From Candidatus Levyibacteriota bacterium (lineage in GTDB: Bacteria > Patescibacteriota > Microgenomatia > Levybacterales > GWA1-39-11), in contig DAIQMY010000001.1 in the NCBI GenBank assembly GCA_036788695.1, positions 61,860 to 125,859 on the forward strand: a stretch of 64,000 nucleotides of DNA. The letters run 5' to 3'. Each line of letters begins with the position of its first letter. Positions within the stretch are counted from its first letter, which is position 1. Both the position numbers and the translations under genes were made by a program. The notes beneath the pieces are model-generated. The model was not told where the DNA came from. It saw only the letters and a program-made list of their open reading frames with translations, and did no database searches. Below, piece after piece: positions 3,026-53,420 of the stretch.

Positions 3026-3030
3026 GAACC

Positions 3031-3075
3031 CACAAAAAATCACAGACCCACAAATACAACATAGGGTCTGTGATT
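3031..3075. terminator. Bidirectional rho-independent terminator hairpin between convergent genes
   Basis: 11-bp inverted repeat atcacagaccc / gggtctgtgat with a 14-nt loop, flanked by an A6 run on the plus strand (U-run for the minus-strand transcript). A second hairpin aagtcac...gtgactt + TTTT sits at 3150..3183. Confidence 0.4.
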
Positions 3076-3162
3076 CTATTCCGTATCAATACATCTAAAT
3101 AGAATTTAGATTGAATTGGAATAAGCACCAAAAAGCTTAACGTTTCTTAAGTCACGTTAAAC

Positions 3163-3618
3163 TTATTTGTAGTGACTTTTTATCTGAAAGATTAAATAGA
3201 ACCCAACTAAAGTGAATACTATTCCTCCCAAATCAAGCGGTGCAAGAATTGCTGAAAGCAAAGCTACAGCCTCACTCCAAAAAAGAAAATTCCATCCTGA
3301 AATTTTGTATTTTTTGGTTCCCGGAAAAGCGGCAAGCAATAAACCTGATGAAACTATAGTGAGAATTGCTGCTAAAACTCCGCCACCCAAAGCCCTTCCT
3401 GCTCCTCCCATAATTGCGAATGGAGAGAAAACAGTAAGAAGTCCAAGACCTGCTATCCCACCAAGTACACCTAATATACCAAAAATAAGCGCAATCCATG
3501 GGGTAATCTTCGCAATAACATCTCTTGCTTCTTTTGGAAGTGCAGGGAGTTTATCAAATAATTCCTGCGTTTTATCAATAATGTTTTGTGTTGTTGTTTT
3601 TGCCATTTTTTTTCTCAC
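3163..3618 (-). CDS. Small glycine-rich integral membrane protein (hypothetical)
   Basis: 151 aa with 3-4 hydrophobic helices carrying G-zipper-like motifs (GILGVLGGIAGLGLL). Strong SD (AGGAGGTGA) 8 nt upstream of the ATG. The antisense ORF 3212..3652 was judged spurious. Confidence 0.5.
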   Translation of the reverse strand: MRKKMAKTTTQNIIDKTQELFDKLPALPKEARDVIAKITPWIALIFGILGVLGGIAGLGLLTVFSPFAIMGGAGRALGGGVLAAILTIVSSGLLLAAFPGTKKYKISGWNFLFWSEAVALLSAILAPLDLGGIVFTLVGFYLIFQIKSHYK

Positions 3619-3722
3619 CTCCTATCAAATTTGTCTTTTGAAAATAGAATAAATAATTTAATTGATGCCTTTCATTCTCTTATTCTATTCTTGCTCATTT
3701 GAAATAGTTGTGCAAGCCCCTG

Positions 3723-5102
3723 TTATAGAGCAAATCCCATCTGATCGTCTTTGCTCTTCACATCTACACTTTTCTCTTCTTTCCAAATACTTACCTTTCC
3801 ATATTCTCCATCATAGCCTGGAATTATGCTAATATCCCTACGCCTTACACGCTCTATCCCATCTGAAACTGTTTGCCCTGCCTGACTTCGTATGTCATCA
3901 ATTCCAGTTCTTAAAAGAATCTGGTGCTCTGTTCCAAATTTCTGAATTAAAGAATCAAACAAAGTTAATACTTTTTGTGAATTTGGAGCAGTATGCAAGG
4001 CTTCTGCAAGAATCTCTAAAAGCGGAACAAGGCTTACTGAGGAAGGACGAATGCCTCTTGGGTCTTTTACCCATACAACTCCATTATTATCCTTTACATA
4101 TGTAAAAAGCTGGTCTGACGACTCAGCAAGGTCCTCTACTCGCTTCATTACTCCTACTGTCAGAAGCCTTTTACATACTGGACACATATCATTTTGAGGA
4201 GTTTCACGAGGTGCATACGAAACTTTGCAATTCCTATGCCCTGTATAGTGGTATTTCCCCTCCTCAGGATAAAATTCTATTGTATAGGCAATTTCAAATA
4301 CTCTCTCTTTCCCCCGAACAAAAGCATTTAAAATATTGTCATATGTTATATCTGCGTCACGCACGCGCTCTCCCGTTTTCGTTCGGAGAACAGTTGCCTC
4401 ACGACCCATTTTCTCAAGAGAGTGAGCGTCTGAAAAAGATACTATGCTTCGAGTAGCAAGCTCTTTAACCCTCCAATTCATTGAAGGGTCAGAAGACAAT
4501 CCTGTTTCAACCGCAAATATACGAGGCGCATATTCACCAAAACATTCAGTAATATGATCATACCCCGACCTGCTACCGTATAAAGAGAACCAGGGAGTCC
4601 AGATATGACAAGGAATAACCGCAATCCTAGGACTTATTTCAAACAACAGCTCGCAAAGATTTCTGCTGCTGATCCCAAGTATTGGCCTCCCATCTGCCGT
4701 AAGGTTTATACCTCTTTGAGATAAGGATCTATTTATTTTCTCAGCAATATTGAAATCAGGCGCAAAGATTAAATTGTGAATTCTGTGAACCTTCCCTCCC
4801 TCCGTATAAATCGCTGCTACCTCGCAGGACAGCATAAAATACGGTCCTAATAAAGGCTTCTTCGCGAGTGTTCCTAACTGATCCTCAAGCGCATCTGCAT
4901 TCTTTAATGCATACATTCCGGGTGCTACCTCTGCTAATTGGGACTGTGCTTCTTTAAACCAAACTGGGTGAGTAAAGTCTGTAATGGAAAAAACGTTAAT
5001 CCCTTTCTTGCGACCCCACAGATACATATTGGAAAGATTCATACGGGGAGAAACAGCGCGCGAAAACCTTGAGTGTAAATGCAAATCGAGGACAAGTTCC
5101 AT
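3723..5102 (-). CDS. PHP-domain nuclease, endonuclease Q (EndoQ)-like
   Basis: N-terminal LDLHLHSRFSRAVSP PHP metal-binding motif (HxH...S) as in the EndoQ/TIGR00375 family. C-terminal CPVC...C zinc-ribbon-like element. 459 aa. Confidence 0.5.
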   Translation of the reverse strand: MELVLDLHLHSRFSRAVSPRMNLSNMYLWGRKKGINVFSITDFTHPVWFKEAQSQLAEVAPGMYALKNADALEDQLGTLAKKPLLGPYFMLSCEVAAIYTEGGKVHRIHNLIFAPDFNIAEKINRSLSQRGINLTADGRPILGISSRNLCELLFEISPRIAVIPCHIWTPWFSLYGSRSGYDHITECFGEYAPRIFAVETGLSSDPSMNWRVKELATRSIVSFSDAHSLEKMGREATVLRTKTGERVRDADITYDNILNAFVRGKERVFEIAYTIEFYPEEGKYHYTGHRNCKVSYAPRETPQNDMCPVCKRLLTVGVMKRVEDLAESSDQLFTYVKDNNGVVWVKDPRGIRPSSVSLVPLLEILAEALHTAPNSQKVLTLFDSLIQKFGTEHQILLRTGIDDIRSQAGQTVSDGIERVRRRDISIIPGYDGEYGKVSIWKEEKSVDVKSKDDQMGFAL

Positions 5103-5490
5103 TTGAGGACATTTAAACAGAAAAGCCTTTGGTTATTCAAGAGACAACGTTACAGGTTTAAGGGTACAAAGACGCAGAGACTTGGAGGAAAACTTTGCTC
5201 CTTTGACTCCCTGTCTCTTTGCCTCTATACTAGATGCATGCAAAAGATAGGAAACATACTGGACAAATTTAACCCCGTTGCAGATAAATACATATCACGT
5301 GAATTTCAATCATTTGGAATATACATGTCAGAAGAGCTACATGACCATAAGCATAAGTCCCTCTATATAAAACTTGCTAAAACAACAAATAGGGCACTTA
5401 TTGAACGCGCAATGTCGTATGTAAAAGACGCACACACCACAACCCCTAATAAAGGAGCTCTTTTTATGTGGAAATTAAAACAACTCAGAG

Positions 5491-5832
5491 ATGAAGAAAA
5501 AGGAATTAAGCCCCAGAAAAACAAATATGACACTAAATAAACACTACGAAAAAGTATACGAGCTTGTAAGAAAGATTCCCAAAGGAAAAGTTACGACATA
5601 TGGAACACTCGGTAAAAAGTTGGAAATGTCACCACGGGTAGTAGGTCAAGCGCTTCACGCAAACCCCTATGAAGGAGAAGTTCCCTGTCATAGAGTGGTA
5701 AATAAAATGGGTCGTCTAGCACCTACCTTTGCGTTTGGAGGAAAAAACGCTCAAAAACGCTTATTGGAAACTGAGGGAGTACTCTTTAAGAATGACTATG
5801 TAGACATGTCAAAGTCATATATAACGGCGTAA
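5491..5832 (+). CDS. MGMT-family protein (O6-alkylguanine-DNA alkyltransferase DNA-binding/active-site domain only)
   Basis: Canonical PCHRVV active-site motif. Helix-turn-helix region begins at YEKVYELVRKIPKGKVTTYGTLG. No N-terminal Ogt domain. An alternative start is MTLNK at 5527. Confidence 0.6.
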   Translation: MKKKELSPRKTNMTLNKHYEKVYELVRKIPKGKVTTYGTLGKKLEMSPRVVGQALHANPYEGEVPCHRVVNKMGRLAPTFAFGGKNAQKRLLETEGVLFKNDYVDMSKSYITA

Positions 5833-5834
5833 GG

Positions 5835-6377
5835 CTACTGCTGACTTTCTAATTTATAATTCCCAAACTTTGTACACCCGCCGCCTGTACCATCATAGTA
5901 ATTTGCTCCCCCCGCTTGAATTGATGGATCAGAAGCGTTCTCAAGTCGAGTTACAAGGATATATGACTGTCCGTCTGCAGTATAGTATGCGTATCCTCGT
6001 GTAGTCGTATCTCCTGGAGTGCATGCCCCACCCTGGTCAGTAAAAGAAGGATCCTGGCTCATTGCCTGAATATATGTGGATGCATTTGGTCCAAACATAG
6101 ATGATGCGGGATCTATGTTCCAACAATTCCAGCTTGTCGCACTAAAACATGTTCCGCTTGCATATACATCTGGATTTGGATATGCCCCGTTATCAGTGTA
6201 ATATTGTTCTAATGCATTTTGTACATCCCGTAACGTTGCCTTACGAGCAGCATCTCTTGATTTTTGAAGTTGGGCGACTGGATTTAGCACTACAATTCCA
6301 ACAGTCACAAGAATCCCCAAAACGGCAATAACGATTAAAAGTTCTATAAGCGTAAAGCCACTTGATTTCTTTCTCAC
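5835..6377 (-). CDS. Type IV pilin / pseudopilin (prepilin-type N-terminal cleavage-methylation domain)
   Basis: N-terminus MRKKSSGFTLIELLIVIAVLGILV is a class III signal: G|FTLIEL with Glu+5 and a hydrophobic helix. C-terminal region has paired Cys. Confidence 0.7.
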   Translation of the reverse strand: MRKKSSGFTLIELLIVIAVLGILVTVGIVVLNPVAQLQKSRDAARKATLRDVQNALEQYYTDNGAYPNPDVYASGTCFSATSWNCWNIDPASSMFGPNASTYIQAMSQDPSFTDQGGACTPGDTTTRGYAYYTADGQSYILVTRLENASDPSIQAGGANYYDGTGGGCTKFGNYKLESQQ

Positions 6378-8321: not shown

Positions 8322-8746
8322 TGGGATTTTGATGGATTTAACATTTTTCTATAGTCTTGCACCATTTCTTGTAAATTTGTCGGCGTGTAAGGCTTTGGCA
8401 TTATACTAACTTTTAACTCTTGCATCTCGTTCTCTAAATCTTTAGTTTCGAGTGAATTCCCGCTTGCAAGAGTAATTGGCATTTTCTCATGTTGAACGCG
8501 AACCTGACGGATTAAATCAATCCCATTTACGCCTGGCATATCCCTATCTGTCATAAGAGCGTTAATAGATGGATCTTCTTGTAATTTTTCTAATGCCTCT
8601 TGTCCATTAGATACAAAGTCTACGTGAACTTGAAGTCGAGTTTTAAGCGCCATTTGTAGCAAAGCCTGAAGCAATTTATCATCTTCTGCTACTAGTAAAT
8701 GTAGCAGCACTTCCTGTTCTTGTTCATTTGTGGGTTGTCCTTCCAT
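8318..8746 (-). CDS. Stand-alone response-regulator receiver (CheY-like REC) domain protein
   Basis: LLVAEDD acidic pocket. Phospho-acceptor Asp in MTDRDMPGVNGIDL. Conserved Lys near MPKPY. There is no output domain. It overlaps the ligase start by 4 nt. Confidence 0.65.
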   Translation of the reverse strand: MEGQPTNEQEQEVLLHLLVAEDDKLLQALLQMALKTRLQVHVDFVSNGQEALEKLQEDPSINALMTDRDMPGVNGIDLIRQVRVQHEKMPITLASGNSLETKDLENEMQELKVSIMPKPYTPTNLQEMVQDYRKMLNPSKSQ

Positions 8747-8748
8747 AG

Positions 8749-9780
8749 TTACTTCATTACGTATTTTACACCTTTTGTAACTCCTTTTTTGGCTAAAATT
8801 CCTTTTTTCACTAAATCCTGCACTTCGCGCAGTACCGTATCCTCTGAAACCATAGAAAAAAGCGTTGCATACATTTTGTTCTCAATATATCCATTTGCTT
8901 TTATGTATTCAACTATTTTTAGTTGCCTATCTGATAGCATTACTGGACCACCTAGTTTTTTTCGAAGCGTTGCGTCAGTTGAAATCCCTTCCACTTTCGT
9001 TTTTATTTTTGAAAGCTCAAGAGCTAAACACTCTGTAAAATAGGTAAGCCACAAGGTCTGATCTCCCTTTTCTTTTTCAACGCTTTGGAGAGCACTATAG
9101 TACTCCTGAGCATTCCTGTCAAAATGCTCCTCAAGAGAAAAGAATTGTCTTGTATCATACCCCTCCTGAAACAAAACAAGCGTAGAAAGCGCACGCCCCA
9201 CTCTTCCATTTCCGTCAAGAAATGGATGGATTCTTACAAATTCATAGTGAACTACTCCCGCCTTTAGTACTGGATGCATCTCATGCTCTTCTTCTATAAA
9301 CTGTATGAGTTCTTTTACCTGCCATGGAACTTCAATTGTTTTAGGAGGCCGAAAAGAAACTTCTCCGGTAATTGAATTTTTAATAACCACATCACGATCT
9401 CTATAATCCCCCATCTTATCCATTGGTAAAATGTTTGCCACCACTATTTTATGTAATTGTTTTATAACATCTTCATCAATTCTCTTACCCATAGTTCTAC
9501 CCATGTACTCCACTACTCGTCTGTAATTTATAACCTCCTGAACATCTCTGTTTCTTGCTACAATATTTTCTCCATCTAAAATCTTTTGAACCTGTACTAA
9601 AGACAACTCATTCCCCTCTATGTGCGTTCCATAATGAACAGTTCTTACAACAGCCTCATCTTGGAATTTCTTTTCCCAATATGGTAATAGTGGCGCGTTT
9701 TCTATAACTTCACGAGCCGCCTCAATACTACCTATATTTTTTAAAATGGAGTTAGTTATGGAAAAAGTGGGTAAATACAT
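8749..9780 (-). CDS. Fic-family protein (AMPylase/adenylyltransferase) with Fic_N-like N-terminus and C-terminal winged-helix
   Basis: Canonical Fic motif HPFLDGNGRVGR (HxFx[D/E]GNGRxxR). C-terminal wHTH-like segment DRQLKIVEYIKANGYIENKMYATL. Confidence 0.85.
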   Translation of the reverse strand: MYLPTFSITNSILKNIGSIEAAREVIENAPLLPYWEKKFQDEAVVRTVHYGTHIEGNELSLVQVQKILDGENIVARNRDVQEVINYRRVVEYMGRTMGKRIDEDVIKQLHKIVVANILPMDKMGDYRDRDVVIKNSITGEVSFRPPKTIEVPWQVKELIQFIEEEHEMHPVLKAGVVHYEFVRIHPFLDGNGRVGRALSTLVLFQEGYDTRQFFSLEEHFDRNAQEYYSALQSVEKEKGDQTLWLTYFTECLALELSKIKTKVEGISTDATLRKKLGGPVMLSDRQLKIVEYIKANGYIENKMYATLFSMVSEDTVLREVQDLVKKGILAKKGVTKGVKYVMK

Positions 9781-11151: not shown

Positions 11152-11994
11152 GAGTTCTTTCATCACCTTTGGAATTTTATTTGCCAAGTCTGAGGCGTTG
11201 AAGTAAATTCCCATACTTTTTTCAAGTTCCTCTCCTGCTTTTTTATTTATATAACTTGCAGCACAGGCAACCAAAAATGGATCATCATTCTTGCAATAAA
11301 GTGAGGCTGTAAGACCTGCTAGCACATCTCCCGTCCCACCTTTTGTCATTCCAGCGTTTCCTCCTGGAATAGAAACAATATCTGTGGGAGATGCAACGAT
11401 ATCGACTTCACCTTTTAACAAAACAGTGCAATGATACACCTCTGCAAACAACTTCACCAACTGCTCTATCGGCTCATTTCCAGAAGAAGGAACTGGAAGA
11501 ATCTTTAAATTTTCAAATTCTTTTTTATGAGGGGTGAGAATGGGCATTTGAGTAAGTTCTAAAAGAATTTTTGGATCCATTACTTGCAGGCTCCCCCCAT
11601 CGATCACCCACCTTTTATCTGGATACGTTTTTAAAAGTCTTTCTGTGAGTTCTTTTGTGTCATCATCACTTCCCCCTCTTCCATCTGGTCTGGGAAGTCC
11701 GGGGCCAATTAAAACACAATCTGCTTCTTTGATGTAGGAATCAAGATTATCCCGTCTCACAACTATCCCATTCCTAAAGTCTTCCTTGGCCTTCTGAACA
11801 ATTTCATTGTTCTCAGGAACTGATGAGTAAAACACCATGTCTAGCATTCTTGAGGCGACGGTTAAAGGCCACAGTGACGCTGCATGAAACAAAGTGGAAC
11901 CTGCAATTATAAGAAGCTTTCCATTCTGTCCTTTATGGGAATCTGCTGCAGGCATATATAATTTTTTTAGATTTTCTAAGTTAAATTCTTTCAT
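11146..11994 (-). CDS. NAD(P)H-hydrate dehydratase (YjeF C-terminal / Nnr2 family)
   Basis: HKGQNGKLLIIAGS motif and a C-terminal GGxGDVLAG-type segment (GGTGDVLAGL), as in ADP-dependent NAD(P)HX dehydratases. Confidence 0.7.
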   Translation of the reverse strand: MKEFNLENLKKLYMPAADSHKGQNGKLLIIAGSTLFHAASLWPLTVASRMLDMVFYSSVPENNEIVQKAKEDFRNGIVVRRDNLDSYIKEADCVLIGPGLPRPDGRGGSDDDTKELTERLLKTYPDKRWVIDGGSLQVMDPKILLELTQMPILTPHKKEFENLKILPVPSSGNEPIEQLVKLFAEVYHCTVLLKGEVDIVASPTDIVSIPGGNAGMTKGGTGDVLAGLTASLYCKNDDPFLVACAASYINKKAGEELEKSMGIYFNASDLANKIPKVMKELL

Positions 11995-12814: not shown

Positions 12815-13525
12815 TTACTCACCATCAATCGTTGTGCCAAAAAATTCGCGCCCTTCAAGCGCGTTTTTTATATTTTCAAAATTTTCTCCCTTAATAATAA
12901 CCACCTTAAGACCTAGTTCTTGAGCCTTTTTAGATGCTATAGGGTCAAATGGCATATTCATACCAGGATCCCATGTATCTCCTACAAGCTTTCTAAAGTC
13001 TGTCCAGGTGATATCTTTTATTGGGGTAGCCGTGGGGTCTTTTCTTGGGTCTGCTGTGTATACTTGAGGAATATTTGTTAAATTAAGAATTGTTTTTACA
13101 TTATAATCTTCGCAAATCATAGTCGCACAAAAATCAGTAGACCATCCTGGCTTCCACCCGGCTGCAACAATTACCGGCTCCTCTACTTTTCTTATTATTT
13201 CATAATGCTTTAATACAAACGGATGAGCAATATCACGAAACACCGTTCTTACTAAGTGTGCGTTTAATTTCGTTGCGTGAATCCCAAGCCAATCTAAATC
13301 ATCCGCTGTTAATTCATGTCCTACTACATCTCGCCCCGCATCTCTATATTTTCTTGCAATAGTACCTCCTCCGACAACCAAAAAAAACTGGCGGTTTGGG
13401 TCATGCGCCAGCTCGAGTCTTATAAAGTTATTTAGTTGCTTGAGAAATTCAGTGGATACCCCGCCATCAGGCACCAAGAGAGATCCCCCCACAGAGAGGA
13501 CAATTTTTTGTTTTCCGTTTCCCAT
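12815..13525 (-). CDS. pyrH: Uridylate (UMP) kinase, archaeal-type
   Basis: VLSVGGSLL, VVGGGTIARKY and LTNIPQVYTADPRKDPTATPI align closely with archaeal PyrH (VVGGG..ARKY; NVDGVYTADPKKDPTAK). Ends FGTTIDGE. Confidence 0.8.
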   Translation of the reverse strand: MGNGKQKIVLSVGGSLLVPDGGVSTEFLKQLNNFIRLELAHDPNRQFFLVVGGGTIARKYRDAGRDVVGHELTADDLDWLGIHATKLNAHLVRTVFRDIAHPFVLKHYEIIRKVEEPVIVAAGWKPGWSTDFCATMICEDYNVKTILNLTNIPQVYTADPRKDPTATPIKDITWTDFRKLVGDTWDPGMNMPFDPIASKKAQELGLKVVIIKGENFENIKNALEGREFFGTTIDGE

Positions 13526-13633
13526 ATGTAAATCGACCTTTTTTACTCAAACTGCCACAAGTAGGATAACAAATGAACGTATATAAATCAACACACATTG
13601 CAATTTCCCTCACAAATTACTACTATTAAAGTC

Positions 13634-13774
13634 TATGGATCAACTAAGTGATGTAAGCATTTTAGGATTTCCACTCCAAGACTGTCCAAAATGTAATGAA
13701 ACAATCGGAGCATTCCCTGGGGGACGTGACGCAACATGCGTAAATTGCGGATTCAAAGATCCTTGCTGTGAATA
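13634..13774 (+). CDS. Small zinc-ribbon protein (46 aa; CPKC...CVNC), hypothetical
   Basis: Manual translation gives MDQLSDVSILGFPLQDCPKCNETIGAFPGGRDATCVNCGFKDPCCE. It is below the ORF-track size cutoff. Confidence 0.3.
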
Positions 13775-13795
13775 AACAGTTTATCCTTTATATAT

Positions 13796-14293
13796 ATGAA
13801 CCCTTTTTTTGAAATCATTTTAAGAACAGCTGTCATATACCTTGTCATAATAATTGGCCTTCGGGTGTTTGGGAAAAAAGAACTCACTCAACTTTCTATT
13901 ACTGACCTCGTATTCATCCTTCTCATCTCAAATGCAGTACAAAGCGCTATGATAGGGAATGACACGTCAGTGCTTGGAGGGATAATTGCGGCTCTTTCAC
14001 TTTTTGTTGTAAATTATCTACTAAAAAATGTTTTCTATAAATCAAAAAGAATTAGCGAATTTTTCCAAGGAGACCCACTCATGCTTGTATACCATGGTAA
14101 ACCGATCGTTGATCATATGGCTAAGGCAAAAATTACTATGGATGAGTTAGAGGCAGTTGTCCGTGAGCACGGAGTAAATAAGATTTCAGACGTAGATTTA
14201 GCAGTGCTTGAGATAGACGGCAATATCAGCATTCTTTCGGAAGATTTCAAAAAAATCACATCAAAAAAGATAAATAAAAATAAGGAATACTAA
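13796..14293 (+). CDS. DUF421 (YetF-like) membrane protein
   Basis: N-terminal TM helices plus the GLRVFGKKELTQLSITDLVFILLISNAV pattern typical of DUF421. Soluble C-terminal domain. Confidence 0.6.
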   Translation: MNPFFEIILRTAVIYLVIIIGLRVFGKKELTQLSITDLVFILLISNAVQSAMIGNDTSVLGGIIAALSLFVVNYLLKNVFYKSKRISEFFQGDPLMLVYHGKPIVDHMAKAKITMDELEAVVREHGVNKISDVDLAVLEIDGNISILSEDFKKITSKKINKNKEY

Positions 14294-14358
14294 ATAAAAT
14301 ATTTTCTTTTGCCTCAGCCTTATAGAAATTCACTCCTACGTCATGCTACAATTGTCCT

Positions 14359-14910
14359 ATGGCTCAACTACAAACAGCAACACTTGCAGGGGGCTGTTTT
14401 TGGTGTACGGAGGCAATTTTTAAACGTCTCAAGGGTGTAGAAAATGTAATTTCAGGATATTCTGGAGGGGCAAGACCAAACCCAACCTATGAACAAGTCT
14501 CTTCTGAGGCAACAGGACATGCAGAGGCAATACAAATAGAGTTTGACCCAGCAATAATTTCATATGAAAAAATTCTTGAGATTTTTTTCCATTTCCATGA
14601 CCCAACAACGTTAAACAGACAAGGAAGTGATGAAGGAACTCAATACCGCTCTGCTGTCTTTTATCACACGAAAGAGCAAGAACAAATAGCTGAACACGTG
14701 AAGCAGGAAATTACTAATGAGGGGAAGTTTAAAGATGCAATAGTTACAGAAATTGTTCCTTTTGAGGCTTTTTACCCGGCTGAAGAAGAGCACCAGAACT
14801 ACTATGATACAAATACCAGTAAAGGATACTGCAACTACATAATCACTCCTAAAATTCAAAAATTATTAAAAGAGTATTCCAAAGAAGTGAAAAAAGAATA
14901 CCTAAGTTAA
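14359..14910 (+). CDS. msrA: Peptide-methionine (S)-S-oxide reductase MsrA
   Basis: GGCFWC active-site motif at the N-terminus and conserved EHQNYY region. Confidence 0.9.
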   Translation: MAQLQTATLAGGCFWCTEAIFKRLKGVENVISGYSGGARPNPTYEQVSSEATGHAEAIQIEFDPAIISYEKILEIFFHFHDPTTLNRQGSDEGTQYRSAVFYHTKEQEQIAEHVKQEITNEGKFKDAIVTEIVPFEAFYPAEEEHQNYYDTNTSKGYCNYIITPKIQKLLKEYSKEVKKEYLS

Positions 14911-14920
14911 GTACCCCCTC

Positions 14921-16348
14921 TTGCATTCTCGTAAGACACCATGCTACGCTTGTTATATGAGGATAAAAATCTTCGTTATTCTTCTCGTTGGGATAATCGT
15001 TCTTCTTCTGGGAACTGTCGGAATATTACTTTATCAAGCAAAATCACAGCAGAATACAAAAACTGAAACAAAAACCGCTTCCATAAGCGGAAAATTTAAT
15101 ATAAATGGTATCATTCCGGAAGGTGCATCTATAACGCTTACTCAAAAACAGATAGGAAAAACAGGCGCAACTCAAAAAATATTTGCTTCAAATTTGCCGG
15201 TTGCAGATCAGTCTCTTTGGAGCTTTAACACTGCACAAGAAAACGAGGAATATGAAATACAAGCACAAGTTGTTGTGGGACAAAACATAGTTGCATCATC
15301 AGACGTGCTTTTCGTAACTGCACCAGCAGATGACGAGACACTTACTGTAAACATTGAGTCAGAAAAACATACTCCTAACGCAGTTATTTCAGGAAACATC
15401 ATAATAAATGGATATATCCCCAATGGCGCAACAATTACTATCAAAGGAAGAAAGCTTGGCGCACAACAATTTACAACAGTTACGCAAAACCTTCCTGCAG
15501 CGTCACGTCAATTTATGAATTACACAACGGCACTAAGCGGTACAACATATGAAGTGGAAGGTATCCTTTTAACCTCAACAGGAACAGTAATTGGAACATC
15601 AAATATTATAACGCTCACAGCTCCTGCTGGAAACGAAGAGTTGATCATAAATTCTTCATCTCAACCTCCTCTTACCCCTACGCCTACTCCTTCAACGCAA
15701 ACAACAGTTGCTACTCCTACTCCTATCCCCCAGGGGGCAGCGATTTCAGGGGGTATAAATTTAAATGGAGCAGTACCTGCAAACTCCAGGATTGTAATCT
15801 TCCAACAAACCCAAAACAATCCCTCCTATCAGGTAGCTGTAAATAATGTCTCTCCTATGGACGGCGCAACTTGGAGTTGGGGAAGCGCCCAAAATGGAAC
15901 ATGGTATACGCTCATTGCAGTATTAAAGCAACACAATGCTGATGGAACAGATACGGATATAGCAACCTCCTCCCCCATAACAGTTGCTGCTCCTGCTTCA
16001 AATGTTATCTTTACTCTCAATTCTACAGTCTCACTCTCATCTCCTGGTGGACCAATATCTGTTTCTTGCCAAACATATAACGGAGGACCAAACCAAAATA
16101 CGTGGAATGTCGCAATTACTTTCCAATCCATTCCCGGAGCCCAATCCTATTGGTATCAAGTAGGAAGTACAAGTGGAAGCAACAATCTTGTTAACACTGC
16201 GAATCAATCAAATACAATTACAGCAACTTTCAGCAATAACACGACCTACTATGCAAGGTACGCCTATACAAACGTCCCCTCAACCCCGCTTGGATCCCCA
16301 CAATGGTCCGGCTTCTCGTCTTCTACTCCCCTTCAATGCAGCCATTAA
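14921..16348 (+). CDS. Surface-anchored repeat protein: N-terminal TM anchor, three ~100-aa tandem beta-rich repeats, Thr/Pro linker, C-terminal Cys-flanked domain
   Basis: Repeats start GKFNINGIIPEGASITL / GNIIINGYIPNGATITI / GGINLNGAVPANSRIVI. Linker is PPLTPTPTPSTQTTVATPTPIP. C-terminal domain has a CQ...CSH pair. The real start is probably MRIKIFVILLVG at 14957. Confidence 0.5.
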   Translation: MHSRKTPCYACYMRIKIFVILLVGIIVLLLGTVGILLYQAKSQQNTKTETKTASISGKFNINGIIPEGASITLTQKQIGKTGATQKIFASNLPVADQSLWSFNTAQENEEYEIQAQVVVGQNIVASSDVLFVTAPADDETLTVNIESEKHTPNAVISGNIIINGYIPNGATITIKGRKLGAQQFTTVTQNLPAASRQFMNYTTALSGTTYEVEGILLTSTGTVIGTSNIITLTAPAGNEELIINSSSQPPLTPTPTPSTQTTVATPTPIPQGAAISGGINLNGAVPANSRIVIFQQTQNNPSYQVAVNNVSPMDGATWSWGSAQNGTWYTLIAVLKQHNADGTDTDIATSSPITVAAPASNVIFTLNSTVSLSSPGGPISVSCQTYNGGPNQNTWNVAITFQSIPGAQSYWYQVGSTSGSNNLVNTANQSNTITATFSNNTTYYARYAYTNVPSTPLGSPQWSGFSSSTPLQCSH

Positions 16349-17950
16349 TTAGTTAATCTTATTCGTTACGTCTATAAATTTGTAATAATTATTTTCATCC
16401 TGGAAAATATAGTTTCTGTCTTCCAAGAGTGGGTAGTCTTCGTGAAAGTATTCATTAAATAAAATTCTGAAAGTGTTAACAGGAGTAATAGTCTGATAAA
16501 GGCTTGTTGTCTTTTTGCCGGGGAAATAATAGGCATTCAGGATGGGAAATTTTTCCCGCAATGAAGCTGTTTCTGCCGTTCCCCATGATTGGTGTTGCGG
16601 AAGTGGTACGTTCATGGGAAAAGGTCCTTCATCAGCCTGCAAAATAATAACAGGTGGATTTTTAGAATTTTTTAGAACCTTACCAATCGTATCTTTTATC
16701 ATGGAATTTGTGCATAGTATTTGATTTTTATAGTTCTCCTGATGATGCATTGTGTTTACAATCTTTTCAGAGATTGGATTGCAATTCTTATCAAAAACAA
16801 AAGGGTCATGAGGCAGTAATATATGCGTAAACACAAATTTTGGACCCTTCATCTGGGGTATTTTGTCAAATGCTTTAAATTCATAAAGAGCCGTAGATCT
16901 ATGAATATTGTTTTGAGGATCTAAAGACACATCCATGGGGTCGTGAAAAATATACTGAAAGATTGGGGATACGGCAGTAATATTTAGATATCCGGTTGTA
17001 AATTCATCAGAATTAAAATATCCTTTTTTTGGCAAAAATATATTTACATCAGCACTCGGATTTATTCTGGTAGGCTCCCACCATGAACCAACGTTTATAA
17101 CGCTATACCCTCGTTTTTTTAAAAACTCTAGCACTTTACTGTTGCGTATATATGGCGTCACAATAGACTCATCCCCTGATGCCCCACCGTTTGTCTTGTC
17201 TGTTAAAAAATCCATATACTCCATATTCAAAGATGACGCTAAAGACAAAAATGTCTTCGGATAGTTTGTTGTAGAGGAAGATGCGACATAAAACCCCTTG
17301 CTCTCAAGATAGGAAAGTAATGAACTATTATCAAAATTGTATTCCTCAGATAATGATTTTTGACCTGCATATCTATCAAGGATAAAATAATAGATATCAG
17401 GATCTGAAGATGATGCTTTTTTAATGTCTGTTTTAACAATTGGTGAGTGGTTGATACCACTCCAACCTCTTTTTGCCCTTAACTCAAAATTGACAATAGT
17501 AACTGAGGAAAAAAGAACTAATCCTAAAAATAAATATGTTAATAACTTATTTAACAGAATAAGTCTTTTTTTGTATTTCCTTGAAACACATGAGACTAGG
17601 AGAACAATAACAAAAATGCTTATGACGCTTGTTGCATTATGAGGAATTGATATCCCGCCAAAACGTAAATCCTGCTCTATTAAGACTGAAAACAATCTAC
17701 TATATGAGAGTACTACAAACACAATTGTTGAGGCAACCACTGTTGAGATTTCTTTTTTTTTAAATACTAAGTACGTTGCTGCTGAAACAAAAACTGCAAA
17801 TAACAATGCCAACGCAATAGGTATGGGCAAAACGCTTAACGTATATTGACGAAGATTATTTGCATACAAAAAAAGCACCGTATAAATTGCGATGAGATAT
17901 GGGGAGGAGAAAATATAGTTTTCTTTTACAAATGCCCCGAATCGTTTCAT
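16349..17950 (-). CDS. Polytopic membrane protein with extracytoplasmic sulfatase/LTA-synthase-like (alkaline-phosphatase superfamily) domain
   Basis: ~5 N-terminal TM helices, then a ~350-aa soluble domain. The assignment rests on architecture and weak motif resemblance only. Confidence 0.4.
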   Translation of the reverse strand: MKRFGAFVKENYIFSSPYLIAIYTVLFLYANNLRQYTLSVLPIPIALALLFAVFVSAATYLVFKKKEISTVVASTIVFVVLSYSRLFSVLIEQDLRFGGISIPHNATSVISIFVIVLLVSCVSRKYKKRLILLNKLLTYLFLGLVLFSSVTIVNFELRAKRGWSGINHSPIVKTDIKKASSSDPDIYYFILDRYAGQKSLSEEYNFDNSSLLSYLESKGFYVASSSTTNYPKTFLSLASSLNMEYMDFLTDKTNGGASGDESIVTPYIRNSKVLEFLKKRGYSVINVGSWWEPTRINPSADVNIFLPKKGYFNSDEFTTGYLNITAVSPIFQYIFHDPMDVSLDPQNNIHRSTALYEFKAFDKIPQMKGPKFVFTHILLPHDPFVFDKNCNPISEKIVNTMHHQENYKNQILCTNSMIKDTIGKVLKNSKNPPVIILQADEGPFPMNVPLPQHQSWGTAETASLREKFPILNAYYFPGKKTTSLYQTITPVNTFRILFNEYFHEDYPLLEDRNYIFQDENNYYKFIDVTNKIN

Positions 17951-17971
17951 GAAATACCTTTGACAAAGCTC

Positions 17972-19339
17972 CTATGCTTTCTTTTGCATTAAGTAGAGCG
18001 TTCTCTTACTGTCCCGGATGGCAACCTTTCTTTTTATGTCAAAATACTCTGAGAATTCTGCCTCAAAATCCTTTTGGGTGTACCATGGGAAAATATCTTT
18101 TCTGTTTGCAAGCAAAATCTGGATCTGAGAATCAGTTTTCTCAATAAATTCAATAATAAGGTTTCCTCCCATTTCAGAAAAACACGATGCCAAATATGAA
18201 AACGGTACATTACCTGGAAATACTAAATGATGAATAAGCGCCAATGCTAGAATAGTGTCCGCAGGCCCCCGGTCAAACAAAGACATACGCTCCTTTCCCT
18301 CCCACCCGAGTGACGGCGTAGGATTTGATAAATCTGAAAATAAAGGTAGGATATTTGTAACGTTTCCTTCTCTTAAGTGTAGGTAATTTTTTTCAATAGC
18401 ACCGTAATCAACATCAAAAGCCAAGACTTGTTCTGCTGATTTTGCGGCAATTTTACTAAAATGTCCCGTGTTTGCTCCCATATCCCAAACTACCTTGGCA
18501 CAACTCTCCTTCACAAACTTTTCAACCAATTCAGATTTATGGCGAAATGATGCAGATTTATAGTTGTTTTTATCTTCTTCATAATAGTCTTCCCATTGAG
18601 TACCCTGCGGACTCCACTTGAGACTTTTAATAGTTCCCTCCAGGTTATCAAGCAATCCAAGCAGCGCGCGTTTACTAAATTTTCTGCTTTTTGTTGCCCT
18701 ATCTATTTTCTTATTTGAGTATTTTTTCTGCGTTGATGCGTGGGCAAATATATGAAAAAGAAGTCTGGGGTTCAATCGGGCACGAACAGGAAGCATATGC
18801 GCTGTAAGCTCAATTGGAATTCCGTCTAAAAATGACTCTCCAAGTCTATTCAACCGTACATCTACATATGACATTAAACACAGAGGAGACAAAAAGTGCT
18901 CAACAAACTGTTTATAGGCAATCCATGGCTTTCCATCCTCATACTTCTCAAATGAAAGCGTATCAATAAAAATCGGCATATTATCTACAAACTGGATATT
19001 ATAAGCGCTTGCGTCCTTTAACGATAACTCATACTCCAACGCTTTCTTCTGAATATGAAGCGTAGTAAGCGCGGCATGTTTTAACATGCTAAATGACCAT
19101 TCATACCAGTATGAAATAAAAGGTATCTGTTGAGGCTCAATAACCTTCCAGGCATTAGCCTGATCCGGCATATTGATTTCTTTGTGTGTCACAAGCAATT
19201 TCTCGTCAGTGAGCGCGCTATAAAGACCGGATGACATAAGAAGTTCATAATCACTTTTATATGATTCATTTATATGGCGGTAAACAATGCCATTCCTACT
19301 AAAAACAAATCCGCTTGGATCTTTATATGATGCGGCCAT
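17972..19339 (-). CDS. Class I SAM-dependent methyltransferase with large N-terminal domain
   Basis: Motif I VWDMGANTGHFS (GxGxG-like) followed by the acidic LAFDVD motif II, in the C-terminal third. Confidence 0.55.
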   Translation of the reverse strand: MAASYKDPSGFVFSRNGIVYRHINESYKSDYELLMSSGLYSALTDEKLLVTHKEINMPDQANAWKVIEPQQIPFISYWYEWSFSMLKHAALTTLHIQKKALEYELSLKDASAYNIQFVDNMPIFIDTLSFEKYEDGKPWIAYKQFVEHFLSPLCLMSYVDVRLNRLGESFLDGIPIELTAHMLPVRARLNPRLLFHIFAHASTQKKYSNKKIDRATKSRKFSKRALLGLLDNLEGTIKSLKWSPQGTQWEDYYEEDKNNYKSASFRHKSELVEKFVKESCAKVVWDMGANTGHFSKIAAKSAEQVLAFDVDYGAIEKNYLHLREGNVTNILPLFSDLSNPTPSLGWEGKERMSLFDRGPADTILALALIHHLVFPGNVPFSYLASCFSEMGGNLIIEFIEKTDSQIQILLANRKDIFPWYTQKDFEAEFSEYFDIKRKVAIRDSKRTLYLMQKKA

Positions 19340-19355: not shown

Positions 19356-19613
19356 TTACTCTTTTTTCTTCCCTGAGGATTTTTCAGAATTTTTTACTTC
19401 CTTTCCTTCTTTTTTGTTAGCAAAACTGCCCAAAAGTCCTTTAATTTGTGTCCACCAAGTTTTAACTAAAAAAAGTCCCGCAAAAAAAACTGCAGCAACT
19501 ATTTGTAAAATGTAACTTCCAGTTCCGGGATCCAAATATGCGTGGGCGTAAGGCGGAAATAAAACCACATATAAAACACTAAAAAAGACGATATGGCGAG
19601 TTATTTTTTTCAT
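19356..19613 (-). CDS. Small secreted/membrane protein (hypothetical)
   Basis: Signal-peptide-like N-terminus ...PPYAHA, one TM helix, Lys-rich tail. Confidence 0.35.
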   Translation of the reverse strand: MKKITRHIVFFSVLYVVLFPPYAHAYLDPGTGSYILQIVAAVFFAGLFLVKTWWTQIKGLLGSFANKKEGKEVKNSEKSSGKKKE

Positions 19614-19723
19614 GGGTATAAGAATGCTACTAATTGTACACTATTTTGAATTTACAACACAAGTCCAAATATTTGGATCATTTTCTACTTGACACAAAAC
19701 ACAAAACATGGGAATAATAAGTA

Positions 19724-20113
19724 ATGCCCAAAAAATCTGTCCATAAAAAAAAGACAAAGCCTGCAAAAAAAATCTACGAAAGACACTTTCTTTGGTCTAT
19801 CTTTTTTATCGCAGTAACTGCTGCGCTTAATATTTACTTTGTAGGAGACGCACGAATTATGGGTGATTCTTATACCTGGCCGTTGGTAGGCACACTCACG
19901 ACAATTGCAACGCTTCTTGTATTAGGATATGAGCGAAAAACTGGGAAATTAGGAAGTGGAAAGTACATGTGGTCCATATTTTTTGCCGCATTAACGCTTT
20001 CTGTCTCGCTTTATATCGCCAGTTCACAAAATTATTCTTCATGGTCTGTTATGGCAGCCGGCGCATCTGTAATTGCCCTTACTCTTCTCATTTACGAAAA
20101 ATACAACGGATAG
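19724..20113 (+). CDS. Small 4-TM membrane protein (hypothetical)
   Basis: Four hydrophobic segments. Lys-rich N-terminus. Confidence 0.4.
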   Translation: MPKKSVHKKKTKPAKKIYERHFLWSIFFIAVTAALNIYFVGDARIMGDSYTWPLVGTLTTIATLLVLGYERKTGKLGSGKYMWSIFFAALTLSVSLYIASSQNYSSWSVMAAGASVIALTLLIYEKYNG

Positions 20114-20145
20114 TTTTCCCTTTCTGCTGCATGTAAAAAATTCAT

Positions 20146-20886
20146 ATGTTTTTAATTCCAGAATCATCATGGGAGGTAAAAGATACAAAAGAGCACGGAC
20201 GTGGCATCTTTGCTACGAAAGAGATTTCAGCAGGAACTGTAATTGGCGACTACACAGGACGCGTAATTCGCCCTCAAGAAGAAGATGAAGTTGAAAAAGG
20301 CGCACACTTCTATTTAATGTATTATCATGACTATGCATCCATTTATCCTAATCTTAAAAAACCAGGGATTCATTTAATAAATCATTCCTGCACACCAAAT
20401 GTTTGGATGTACACATATCATGGGCATACGCTCTACTTTGCGCTAAGAAAAATATTCAGAGGTGAACAGATAACAGTGTCTTATCAGCTAAGTCCTCTGG
20501 ATAAAAATTGTGCCCCATGCACTCATACCTGCACATGTGGAGCAGCACTTTGCTTCCAAACCATGCATTTATCTCAAAAAAGATATAAAGAATGGGATGC
20601 ATTTCAAACAATACAAGAAGATAGAACGCCAAGAGAGCGCGTACGCTTTGGCGAACTACTCCCCCCTCTTGCCTCTTATCCTAAAAGCATTCCTGACAAC
20701 TCAATATATATTCTATTTGGCGCGAAACAGGAACTTTCTGTAAAGCTTATGGATAAAAAAATCCCTAGCAAAACAGAGATGAGAAAAATAATAAGAGACA
20801 CAGGACGCACTATTCAGTTTTACAATCTCAACCTAAAAGTACACGGAGTATTTGAAGATCTTCTGATTTCTGAATCAAGAAAATAA
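20146..20886 (+). CDS. SET-domain protein (putative protein-lysine methyltransferase) with Cys-rich post-SET and ~100-aa C-terminal extension
   Basis: GRGIFATKEISAGTVI (GxG motif), INHSCTPN (NHSCxPN), EQITVSY (ExxxxY), and post-SET CAPCTHTCTCGAALC. Confidence 0.75.
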   Translation: MFLIPESSWEVKDTKEHGRGIFATKEISAGTVIGDYTGRVIRPQEEDEVEKGAHFYLMYYHDYASIYPNLKKPGIHLINHSCTPNVWMYTYHGHTLYFALRKIFRGEQITVSYQLSPLDKNCAPCTHTCTCGAALCFQTMHLSQKRYKEWDAFQTIQEDRTPRERVRFGELLPPLASYPKSIPDNSIYILFGAKQELSVKLMDKKIPSKTEMRKIIRDTGRTIQFYNLNLKVHGVFEDLLISESRK

Positions 20887-20942
20887 TTGTAGAAAGAAGA
20901 AATTTTATAAATTTAAAAAAATGTTGTTTGAGCGGGCTTTTT

Positions 20943-20968
20943 TGCTGACATCAGCAAAAATTCAGAAT
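20943..20968. terminator. Terminator-like hairpin between convergent genes
   Basis: gggcTTTTTTGCTGAcatCAGCAAAAAtt: a 10-bp stem whose arms are themselves T/A runs, so it could act bidirectionally. Confidence 0.3.
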
Positions 20969-20993
20969 AGTACCTTCCTCCTCCTGAAAGCTA

Positions 20994-21299
20994 CTAAATA
21001 ACTCCTGAAAAAAGTAGAATTAAAATCAAAGCTGTAAAAACTGCGAAAACACCTACAGTTTTAACAAATAAATTCACTGCTTTTTTCTTCTTCCCCTCAA
21101 TAAAAAGCTGCAGTGGCTGATAAAAAAATAAAAAGACCATTACTGTAACTGAAAGTGTTAACAGTGATAAAAATACAACCGGGGCAAAAGCAGTGTCAGG
21201 CTTGTTCTTGTGGGTTTGGGATATGAGGTTAATGACTAAAACAACAATGCCAATGTAGCCTGCGGCACTAAGAGCATTAATAATAGGATTCTTGGACAT
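20994..21299 (-). CDS. Small 3-TM membrane protein (hypothetical)
   Basis: Hydrophobicity pattern only. Confidence 0.4.
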   Translation of the reverse strand: MSKNPIINALSAAGYIGIVVLVINLISQTHKNKPDTAFAPVVFLSLLTLSVTVMVFLFFYQPLQLFIEGKKKKAVNLFVKTVGVFAVFTALILILLFSGVI

Positions 21300-21393
21300 A
21301 TACTAATTATACCAAATAATTATGTGTTAGTCTTTAAAAATCTTAAAGTAGAAGCTACTTGTTTTCTTTATGTTAATATGTAATACTATTTAG

Positions 21394-22209
21394 ATGAGTG
21401 AACTTGGTACTAAAGACGGAACTCCTGGAATTGCTTCCGTAGATGCTGTCAAAAGACCAACAATTGCTAATCCCGATAGAGCAAGAAAAATAGATGATTT
21501 GCAAGATGCCTTTAGAAGAAAAAATCAAGAAGTCGGCGGTAGATTTCTAGTCGAAGTTCCCTTGGGAGACGGATCAGATAGAGTTGTGCAGGTATTAAGA
21601 CCAGATGCCTTAAAATCTGCCAAAACAAATTTTGACCCAAAAGCAAGCACTGTAGATCCTAATCTTTTAAATTATTTTGCTGGAGACGGCGATACAACAT
21701 ATCCTGCACTTCCTGTTGTTTTACCTGAAATTGGAAATTCTTGGGTATTTGGATCTATAAGATACGTCGGAGATAATCCAGGCGTTGAGGAGTTTACAGC
21801 TGAGATTATGGGGCACGATTCTATATCCCTGAATTGGGATGCTAGGGAAAAAAATTTTTTGGACCTTGCTCAGAAAAACGGTCTATCTTTTTATACGCAT
21901 CCTGGTCTTGAGGCGGATGATACGCCTTCATATGCGCATTCAATGGGAACAGGTAAAGTACAAATACTCTCTCGGGGTGAGAAGTGGGATAAAATACAAA
22001 TCCGAGAATTGCATAAACTTTTAGAGGGCTGGAAAGGTGGCGTACCAGCGGGAGGCTCAGGAATAGTACCTGTTCGGGGAAATGTTTCTACCGACCTTTT
22101 CAATTTGGCCATAAAAGGTGCATTCGAACGGGCAAAAGAAATAGAACGAGGTCCCTCACCAGATAGAAATATTAGAAATACAATAAATTTGCTTGAAGAT
22201 TTGAAATAG
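21394..22209 (+). CDS. Hypothetical protein (271 aa), no recognisable domain
   Basis: Long ORF with normal codon usage. No motif recognised. Confidence 0.4.
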   Translation: MSELGTKDGTPGIASVDAVKRPTIANPDRARKIDDLQDAFRRKNQEVGGRFLVEVPLGDGSDRVVQVLRPDALKSAKTNFDPKASTVDPNLLNYFAGDGDTTYPALPVVLPEIGNSWVFGSIRYVGDNPGVEEFTAEIMGHDSISLNWDAREKNFLDLAQKNGLSFYTHPGLEADDTPSYAHSMGTGKVQILSRGEKWDKIQIRELHKLLEGWKGGVPAGGSGIVPVRGNVSTDLFNLAIKGAFERAKEIERGPSPDRNIRNTINLLEDLK

Positions 22210-22430
22210 CTCTTTACTATTCTAACCTTTTCTTCTTGATCAATTATATTTAGACGCTTTTTAGGTATCACTTTGAACCTTGCTCCCCAAGCCTCTAGTC
22301 TTTTATGGTTCGCAAGCCAAAAAACACAAACCCGCTATTTGGATTTAAGAATTGTGTTTTTATCTGTTCAGTTTTTGGGACAGATATTTTTTTCTGCTTG
22401 TTTGGAAATTTAATTTTTTGCTAGCTTCCC

Positions 22431-23012
22431 CTATGAGTCTGTGCTGATGATTGGGGGTGTTGATCCTTTGAAAGCAACACCTTCTTGAGTTAAATCTTCC
22501 AATAAGACTGAGTATGCTTGAATATCCTCTGCTCCTGCTCGTTTTTCCCATGCAGGCTTGCGGGGGGTTCCAATCGGCTTCATAGTAATAGGTTCTTGTC
22601 TCCACGCTTTTGATTGCAAGCGAGCTTCTGAACCTTCAAGAATCAAAATTCTATCAAGTTCTTCTACGTCTACCTGGTAATCCAAATCTTTTGCTGAATC
22701 TGGATTTTCTGCTTTTGGATAAGCTGATGCTGATATGCTAACCGTTGTTAATGTTCCACCTTCTAATGGAATAGTTGCAATAAGAACAGTCTTACGTTTA
22801 TCTGGGTTACGTGGATCAAACTTGTCAAAGTTTGCGGGTGTAATGACTTCAGGTGCAGGAACTTTTGAAGTAATTAAACTGCCTAATTGTACTTTGAAAT
22901 CTGGAAGCATTTTCTTTGCCTCAGCCTCACTTAATTCTTTGGCTTCATTTGTCTTTCTCTGCTGGATAACCTGGTCAATAAGAGGATTTGGTCTTCTATT
23001 ACCTTCAACCAT
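22431..23012 (-). CDS. Hypothetical protein (193 aa), no recognisable domain
   Basis: Long ORF convergent with 21394..22209. No motif recognised. Confidence 0.35.
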   Translation of the reverse strand: MVEGNRRPNPLIDQVIQQRKTNEAKELSEAEAKKMLPDFKVQLGSLITSKVPAPEVITPANFDKFDPRNPDKRKTVLIATIPLEGGTLTTVSISASAYPKAENPDSAKDLDYQVDVEELDRILILEGSEARLQSKAWRQEPITMKPIGTPRKPAWEKRAGAEDIQAYSVLLEDLTQEGVAFKGSTPPIISTDS

Positions 23013-23339
23013 AATTGAAGAAATTTAATCATTTTAACCCCTGCTTGTCAATAAATGATTATGCAATGGCCACAATTCTAGCAAATTTAAACGCGCATGC
23101 TCAAATCTTACTAAGAATATGTAAAAACTAAAGATGTAATCTTAAACTGCGCGATTGTTTCAATGCAAATTAACAACTACTCTGAAGCTTTAGTAAAAGA
23201 TGGCTCCCCCGCTGGGAATCCCTTCTGCTATTTCAGCTACATTGAACTTTCTGAAATGTTCAGGGTAAACTTCTCGTCCTTACTGGGGAATTCGTTTTCA
23301 CCTTGCTTGCACTGAGTGAAGCAAAGCGAAACCGAAGTG

Positions 23340-23411
23340 CTCCCCCGCGAGGACTCGAACCTCGAACCTTTTCGTTAACAGCGAATTGCTCTACCATTGA
23401 GCTACAGGGGA
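23340..23411 (-). tRNA. tRNA-Asn (anticodon GUU); CCA not encoded
   Basis: Minus-strand sequence TCCCCTG-TA-GCTC-AATGGTA-GAGC-A-ATTCG-CTGTTAA-CGAAA-AGGTT-CGAGG-TTCGAGT-CCTCG-CGGGGGA-G folds as a cloverleaf. 7-bp acceptor (U1:A72, one G-U), D-loop GG, U33, anticodon GTT, A37, T-loop TTCGAGT, discriminator G73 as in bacterial tRNA-Asn. Confidence 0.85.
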
Positions 23412-53402: not shown

Positions 53403-53420
53403 GGTCTTATTGTAGAAGAA

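Follow-up and report, generated by a model that had tools for sequence, protein, structure and literature searches.

Genes for SET-domain proteins are widespread among free-living bacteria and archaea (PMC3980110). The SET effectors secreted by host-associated bacterial species act as histone methyltransferases, and Go1-SET of Methanosarcina mazei is thought to act on an endogenous DNA-binding chromatin protein, MC1-alpha (PMC3980110). Here, a SET gene from a member of Candidatus Levyibacteriota, a lineage of the candidate phyla radiation (CPR), is described. It lies in a window of 64,000 nucleotides (assembly GCA_036788695.1, contig DAIQMY010000001.1, positions 61,860 to 125,859), within a stretch of about 4 kb (positions 19356-23411) that ends in tRNA-Asn and also holds genes for small membrane proteins (tm85, tm129 and tm101) and two orphan genes, hyp271 and hyp193 (Table 1). 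Go1-SET, a SET protein of minimal size, is not known to have a long C-terminal domain; the protein described here carries a C-terminal extension.

The first-pass annotation had suggested for this stretch an accessory block at the tRNA gene with traits typical of laterally acquired cargo, and for the SET protein a role as host-directed effector or chromatin-like regulator, and had called SET domains rare in bacteria, which is outdated in view of the distribution given above. We find the stretch to be composite, with a native left part and a variable right part, and no single accessory block; its truly variable portion is only about 2 kb and consists of the hyp271 and hyp193 genes. The favored reading is a native SET methyltransferase next to a plasticity zone at tRNA-Asn with rare accessory genes, to which we assign a probability of roughly 0.6. 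Its main value is corrective: the SET gene should be listed neither among the cargo of an island nor among putative effectors aimed at a host.

Conservation and genomic context of the SET gene

A scan with one genome per species yielded 25 loci, onto which the proteins of the window were mapped. The gene order g14921_475, g16349_533, MT455 (encoding a 455-aa protein), tm85 and SET is kept in four relatives, L001, L002, L005 and L003, whose SET proteins are 94, 91, 67 and 65% identical to that of the window. The corresponding values for MT455 are 91, 91, 67 and 65%, so that its divergence parallels that of SET. tm85 accompanies the upstream MT455 and is syntenic in all four (49–93% amino acid identity), and tm129 is found only in the closest relatives L001 and L002 (93–94%), its slot being filled by two other membrane-protein genes in L003 and L005. 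tm101 adjoins SET in L001, lies 10 kb away in L011 and is absent from L002. In L002, L005, L015 and L020, the tRNA-Asn gene follows SET downstream at a distance of a few kb, and in L008 this distance is about 8.6 kb; the genes between the two differ. Since distant relatives keep this proximity with different intervening genes, the proximity is ancestral.

The k-mer comparison of the block with its flanks, which had been suggested as a check, revealed no atypical composition: the 3-/4-mer distance z of 2-kb windows across the block stays between -1.0 and +1.1 relative to the window average, and the GC content of 0.36–0.40 is like that of the flanks. The ratio of nonsynonymous to synonymous substitution rates (dN/dS) of SET is 0.05–0.065 against both strains (L026, L028) and species (L001, L002), and it does not exceed the span of its neighbors (0.025–0.19); for tm85 it is 0.07–0.15. 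SET is a conserved, vertically inherited gene of the Levyibacteriota lineage without cargo status. Synteny and native composition across related genomes had been named in the first-pass annotation itself as what would speak against its proposal, and because SET is both syntenic and compositionally native, this now applies to the SET half of the block. Presence and absence in relatives gave a divided answer: hyp271, hyp193 and partly tm101 are variable as proposed, and tm85, tm129 and SET are kept.

Across 24 loci, SET has no recurrent neighboring gene family, and genomic context therefore does not hint at any partner or substrate. A RecQ-like helicase was considered as operon partner and rejected, as it lies near SET in five of the 24 loci with varying distance and orientation.

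A separate observation concerns the only IMG/VR match of the SET family, on contig L045 (IMGVR_UViG_3300020195_001307, 1656-6304). Here, SET lies between genes for a Pif1-like helicase and a DsbA-like protein, with a large serine recombinase and a reverse transcriptase about 1.5 kb off; this is probably a host contig carrying an integrated element.

The tRNA-Asn gene as an attachment site

Between SET and tRNA-Asn/ABC-F the gene content differs in every relative. L002 has genes for small membrane proteins and metal-related genes here, over about 5 kb. In L001 (11701-19466), tm101 is followed by an Erm-like methyltransferase of 309 aa, a tyrosine integrase (14973-15878, Phage_integrase E 4.8e-19) and several phage-like small open reading frames (ORFs), and this cargo is a second mobile element in the same zone, different from the one described next.

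Among close strains, two alleles of the tRNA-Asn site exist. The empty allele is found in the window, in the 100% identical contig L040 (ENA ERZ794922 NODE_17) and in L043. The occupied allele, found in L026/L041, L042 and L044 and exemplified by a sibling strain of 97% DNA identity (GCA_964419005.1), carries an insert of about 10 kb between the hyp193 gene and tRNA-Asn (about 10.0 kb from the contig coordinates; L026 9560-10010, L041 1-9858). In order, the insert encodes DUF4396, DUF305, a CsoR-like repressor, DUF1428, DUF1801, S26-like, SpoVG-like and HTH_17 proteins, an Erm-like RrnaAD protein and a large serine recombinase of 500 aa; the CsoR, DUF305 and DUF4396 genes count as metal genes. 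The recombinase contains Resolvase, Recombinase and Zn-ribbon domains and sits at the edge of the insert, where its ORF overlaps an intact, restored tRNA-Asn. The element supplies an encoded CCA, which the empty-site tRNA of the window does not have.

L026 matches the window with 97% identity as far as 23349 and diverges beyond this point, and four metagenome contigs also break at 23337. The junctions read agtG CTCC cccgcgagg in the window, agtG CTCC gcctcgcag on the far side of the insert and ttgG CTCC cccgcgagg on the recombinase side; all three have only the core GCTCC in common, which fits the expectation for a serine recombinase. Mechanistically, the recombinase would cross over within GCTCC, and the element would restore the tRNA with its own CCA.

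An earlier event can be suspected as well. A partial copy of the tRNA end, tgGCTCCCCCGCTGGGAATC, at 23200-23220 is identical to 23339-23356 at 15 of 18 positions and lies 136 bp from the real 3' end. Four occurrences of the 14-mer of the tRNA end with at most three mismatches were found, against 0.61 expected, and contig L030, which carries genes for MgtE and a Dam-like methyltransferase, diverges from the window exactly at this copy. Judged from sequence, this copy was probably left behind as a scar when an older element integrated. Because of the occupied and empty alleles, the scar and the contig breaks, tRNA-Asn is a repeatedly used attachment site, of which the window shows the empty allele. 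The mobile-element biology of this locus thus belongs to the tRNA-Asn attachment site, occupied and empty within one population, while hyp271, hyp193 and the other genes of the block are chromosomal with respect to each of the observed junctions. Of the proposal of acquisition next to a tRNA gene, the plasticity zone stands and the placement of SET inside the cargo falls.

These data also bear on the view that the whole 19.3–23.4 kb block, SET included, is an island which entered the chromosome at tRNA-Asn and whose integrase was lost afterwards. The block adjoins the 3' end of the tRNA and contains orphan ORFs, integrative elements demonstrably use this site, and a 21-nt imperfect direct repeat is present at 20896 and 23017. 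Nevertheless, we consider this view highly improbable. SET, tm129 and tm85 are syntenic with core neighbors in four relatives, down to 65% identity, the composition does not deviate, and several distant relatives show that the proximity of SET to the tRNA is ancestral. Within 19356-23199 there is no tRNA-derived repeat, the sole partial copy being the one 136 bp from the tRNA. The 21-nt repeat (20896-20916 and 23017-23037, 18/21 identical), which brackets tm101, hyp271 and hyp193 and was tried as a boundary, was rejected as probably due to chance, since 5 kb of sequence contain 20 such short two-copy repeats. For the SET half, the island is contradicted already by the conservation described above.

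The accessory genes hyp271 and hyp193

Both orphan genes are very rare and belong to small, lineage-restricted families. hyp271 has four homologs among 5.8e9 proteins, and an exhaustive HMMER profile search of 1.84e9 proteins returned ten representatives, of which two are spurious, namely repetitive proteins of 2722 and 532 aa hitting a short VDQVLRPDA-like motif; otherwise this search contributed just a few fragments. For hyp193, 16 homologs were found. The homologs of both, which are 38–98% identical, keep common motifs, and this indicates that hyp271 and hyp193 are real genes. That they have no recognizable domains was borne out by Pfam, NCBIfam, PHROG and PADLOC, none of which gave a match. 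Profile searches against the PDB returned only noise (E>0.2), no relatives were found on IMG/VR contigs, and the AlphaFold2 model of hyp271, built from a five-sequence alignment, is unusable with a mean predicted local distance difference test score (pLDDT) of 39.6.

hyp271 and hyp193 are absent from all 25 genome loci, including the relatives at 91–94% SET identity, and are found together only in the strain cluster of the window. The relatives of hyp193 are singletons at unrelated loci, and their contexts differ in L035 and L038. A 38% identical relative of hyp271 lies directly downstream of a large serine recombinase of 552 aa, with HTH_17, HNH and DUF3800 neighbors. Furthermore, L002 carries an insert of about 1 kb between tm85 and tm129 (8523-9533) with a single gene, whose 233-aa product is 24% identical to hyp193. 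This insert is flanked by an 11-bp direct repeat, CCCCAAATATT, which is present once in L001 and in the window occurs as the variant GTCCAAATATT. The repeat resembles a target-site duplication that encloses a cassette of one gene, for which no terminal inverted repeats and no flanks in common with hyp193 of the window were found.

Between strains, the dN/dS of hyp271 and hyp193 is 0.43–0.87 in comparison to 0.05 for SET, with only about 17 substitutions in all behind these values. The low dS of the orphans had raised the idea of a recent sweep or transfer, which was rejected, since the region is a mosaic of 92–100% identity in which core stretches are equally similar.

Two related interpretations of these genes can be put forward, both tentatively. 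One, our best guess though less likely than not, sees in them accessory genes under weak constraint that stem from mobile elements. The other, which we hold to be possible and rather doubtful, is that they are remnants of a decayed element or prophage at tRNA-Asn, with selfish or anti-phage cargo. Their absence from relatives at 91–94% SET identity, the recombinase beside the 38% identical relative of hyp271, the distant hyp193 relative on the repeat-flanked insert of L002, the scattered singletons and the elevated strain-level dN/dS point in this direction. On the other side stand their native composition, the blank PHROG, PADLOC and IMG/VR results, the lack of a recombinase remnant or att repeat bounding the two genes, their position, which neither the two junctions of the current element nor the scar enclose, and the fact that the pair occurs together nowhere beyond this strain cluster.

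The SET protein and its C-terminal extension

The SET domain proposed earlier was recovered by the PF00856 profile with 68.9 bits (cutoff 22.4; E 5.8e-19), residues 18-114 matching profile positions 1-105 of 105. Conservation of the motifs was read from a family alignment of 101 sequences. Here, G18-x-G20, N79-H-S-C82-x-P-N85 (N79-H-S-C82-T-P-N85 in the window) and the post-SET motif C129-x-C131-x4-C136 (C129-T-C131-GAAL-C136), joined by C122 and C125, are present, with the catalytic Y113 in 101/101 sequences. No variation occurs at the Cys residues or at Y113, N79, P84 and G18, and the other motif positions are 94–99% conserved. The GxG, NHSCxPN and Cys-rich post-SET motifs were thus correctly named, only the spacing of the reported ExxxxY motif being different: it reads E107-x5-Y113, with E107 invariant. 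The canonical Glu of ELxF/YDY is Q108 in the window and E in 92/101 relatives.

Among solved structures, KMT2A/MLL1 is the best sequence match (60 bits, E 1.7e-15, about 32% identity), and the Set2, NSD and SUV39 types follow far behind with at most 37 bits. In a structure comparison, 136 residues superpose onto the SET/post-SET region of MLL1, and the SET beta-fold with its pseudoknot was found. C82, C129, C131 and C136 are invariant and match CNCGAKKC of MLL1 in the alignment, as expected for a post-SET zinc cluster. A further conserved set, C122, C125, H127 and H141, may constitute a second metal site. From its sequence, the protein looks catalytically complete.

The extra C-terminal region of about 100 aa was confirmed as residues 142-246 and is conserved. 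The SET family comprises 397 matches, and the best 120 are 50–99% identical over 87–100% of the query (mostly 98–100%) with a length of about 246 aa. Since these best relatives cover the query nearly in full, the extension belongs to the definition of the family. It consists of a helix (144-159), an extended linker with the motif YPxxIPDxxIYxLFG and a small alpha/beta unit, and 16 of its 105 columns are at least 90% conserved, among them W150, Y178-P179, D184, Y188, G192, R213, G220 and G234. With a pI of 9.7 it is strongly basic, compared with 6.7 for the SET part. It gave no Pfam match, and the structural check that had been proposed for it returned no match to any known fold. Within the whole protein, the Pfam search found no domain other than SET/PR and no ankyrin repeats.

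Two variants of the family were seen besides. In L018-L023 a short form of about 190–210 aa matches query residues 1-188, minus the last 55 or so residues of the extension, and L017 has a second SET-like ORF of 140 aa (about 11560-11985), 1.5 kb downstream of the main copy.

Proposed role of the SET protein

The SET protein is a new, uncharacterized member of a well-known enzyme superfamily, and the extension is its only unusual feature. Within the searchable library, no paper was found that joins SET domains with Patescibacteria or CPR terms. On the model of related enzymes, it would be a cytoplasmic protein-lysine methyltransferase, in which S-adenosylmethionine (SAM) would be held by the pocket of GxG, NHSCxPN and Y113, and the lysine channel would be closed by the post-SET zinc cluster of C82 and C129/C131/C136. 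By analogy, its substrate is most likely a lysine in some protein of the bacterium itself. The basic extension probably serves as a targeting module and could direct the enzyme toward nucleic acid or an acidic protein surface. More specifically, the substrate might be the nucleoid protein of the CPR cell itself, making SET a chromatin-like regulator, a proposal that we regard as speculative and somewhat unlikely. If the substrate is an own nucleoid or translation protein, a layer of lysine methylation would be added to the reduced regulatory repertoire of CPR bacteria, and the extension would represent a new substrate-targeting domain.

The alternative is a host-directed effector delivered by an episymbiont, comparable to NUE of Chlamydia and RomA/LegAS4 of Legionella. 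CPR bacteria are generally host-dependent (PMC11665869), and where SET proteins of host-associated bacteria have been characterized, they are secreted and methylate histones (PMC3980110). In addition, the nearest matches in sequence and structure are eukaryotic MLL1-type SET domains, and the unmatched extension could in principle serve delivery or targeting. However, the hydropathy scan, which covers hydrophobic N-termini with non-classical T3/T4-type signals being outside its reach, found neither a signal peptide nor a hydrophobic N-terminal segment. The LegAS4/AnkI equivalog model NF043024 reaches 24.7 bits against a cutoff of 550, over 32 residues only, Pfam shows no ankyrin, NLS-type (nuclear localization signal) or other domain, and no secretion genes are present among the neighbors. 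Synteny and a dN/dS of about 0.05 are the opposite of the fast turnover typical of effectors. The known hosts of CPR bacteria are bacteria or archaea, most of them without histones. Taken together, the effector suggested in the first-pass annotation has nothing but analogy on its side and is improbable. Little credence is likewise given to the variant in which the extension is a new targeting or delivery module and SET methylates a protein of the attached bacterial or archaeal host; if this were true, it would be the first SET effector against a prokaryotic host.

Some points weigh against the favored reading of a native SET methyltransferase beside a plasticity zone with rare accessory genes. 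In the clade of the window (9/101 sequences), Gln replaces the canonical Glu of ELxF/YDY. The 24 loci offer no conserved neighbor pointing to a substrate, and these loci together with about 400 metagenomic proteins are the basis on which the family is called lineage-wide. The context of L045 leaves room for occasional mobility of SET, which may occur. Finally, the dN/dS values of the orphans come from about 17 substitutions, and strain identity is a mosaic.

Layout of the stretch and further features of the window

All ORF positions given before, six ORFs and tRNA-Asn, were reproduced in the ORF listing of the window, including the convergent hyp271/hyp193 pair (Table 1). The hydropathy scan gives three membrane proteins, tm85, tm129 and tm101, where two had been counted; in the SET, hyp271 and hyp193 proteins this simple scan found no hydrophobic segments. 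As stated before, no integrase is present: ORF list, Pfam and NCBIfam reveal no recombinase or integrase among the ORFs of the block, and recombinases occur only in relatives. The stop codon of tm129 is 32 nt from the start of SET on the same strand, and a co-transcript of both is possible. Promoter-like sites are not more common than in shuffled sequences, with one 11/12 sigma-70-like match at 19689-19718. For tm101, matches to DUF7942 and the SCO4225 family stay below threshold in Pfam and NCBIfam.

Table 1. Features of the stretch 19356-23411 (window coordinates; TM, transmembrane segment)
Feature	Position	Strand	Remarks
tm85, 85 aa	19356-19613	-	signal-like N-terminus and 1 TM, conserved AYLDPGTGSY motif; small secreted or membrane protein
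tm129, 129 aa	19724-20113	+	small membrane protein, about 4 TM
SET-domain protein, predicted protein-lysine methyltransferase, 246 aa	20146-20886	+	SET core, post-SET and C-terminal extension
SET core (aa 1-118) and post-SET Zn-cluster region (aa 119-141)	20146-20568	+	from alignment to MLL1 and conserved columns
SET C-terminal extension (aa 142-246)	20569-20883	+	pI 9.7; no family or fold match
tm101, 101 aa	20994-21299	-	small membrane protein, 3 TM, semi-conserved
hyp271, 271 aa	21394-22209	+	soluble, acidic; very rare family; in variable segment
hyp193, 193 aa	22431-23012	-	soluble, acidic; small lineage-restricted family; in variable segment
Partial direct copy of tRNA-Asn 3' end including CCA, tgGCTCCCCCGCTGGGAATC	23200-23220	+	probable old att scar
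tRNA-Asn(GTT)	23339-23411	-	3' end faces the block; attB core GCTCC at 23339-23343

Directly upstream, at 16349-19339, lies a conserved trio of a 533-aa protein with multiple TM (no Pfam match), the 455-aa protein MT455 and tm85, which is syntenic down to 65% identity. MT455 contains a C-terminal class-I SAM methyltransferase region and has a weak PADLOC match to mad2 (E 2e-5). Elsewhere in the window, a glmS ribozyme (63581-63781, minus strand; Rfam RF00234, 58.6 bits) is located directly upstream of a 619-aa ORF (61754-63613, minus strand). The region 52500-57000 is the strongest k-mer outlier, with the maxima of the 3-/4-mer distance and a GC content down to 0.31, and is more likely to be of foreign origin than the block at 19356-23411.

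On the contigs of relatives, two further observations were made. L035 (Logan SRR22372591, 427 kb), which also bears a hyp193 homolog, encodes a reverse-gyrase-like protein of 1148 aa with ResIII/DEAD helicase, Toprim and Topoisom_bac domains (12939-16385). L001, L003-L005, L007, L008 and others are records titled "uncultured Gammaproteobacteria bacterium" (TPA_asm binchicken/SRP co-assemblies). Because they are collinear with Levyibacteriota contigs, such metagenome-assembled genomes are evidently CPR with placeholder taxonomy.

Comparison with known systems

In the SET and post-SET catalytic domain, the closest match is KMT2A/MLL1 of the Trithorax/SET1 type, a likeness put forward without claim to KMT2 membership. 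In contrast to MLL1, the CPR protein has just 246 aa, and a search for the flanking modules of the eukaryotic proteins detected none in it. It adds the invariant C122/C125/H127/H141 and the extension of about 105 aa, for which the MLL/SET1 structures have no counterpart, and the CPR organism has no histone H3.

NUE of Chlamydia, RomA/LegAS4 of Legionella and BtSET of Burkholderia are substrates of type III or type IV secretion systems (T3SS/T4SS) with NLS or ankyrin modules, and their targets are eukaryotic histones. The CPR SET protein, on the contrary, has neither a secretion signal nor a eukaryotic host, and its gene is conserved and syntenic.

The insert of the sibling strain is like the known integrative elements that target tRNA genes with large serine recombinases, being placed exactly at the tRNA-Asn 3' end and having a recombinase and HTH_17 gene at its edge and a 5-bp core. 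The window differs in being an empty attB, and no gene of the block lies inside the insert.

Go1-SET of M. mazei is likewise a stand-alone, non-secreted prokaryotic SET protein of a free-living or environmental organism, the likeness being one of description. By this analogy, its proposed action on MC1-alpha is the favored functional model for the SET protein of this CPR lineage.

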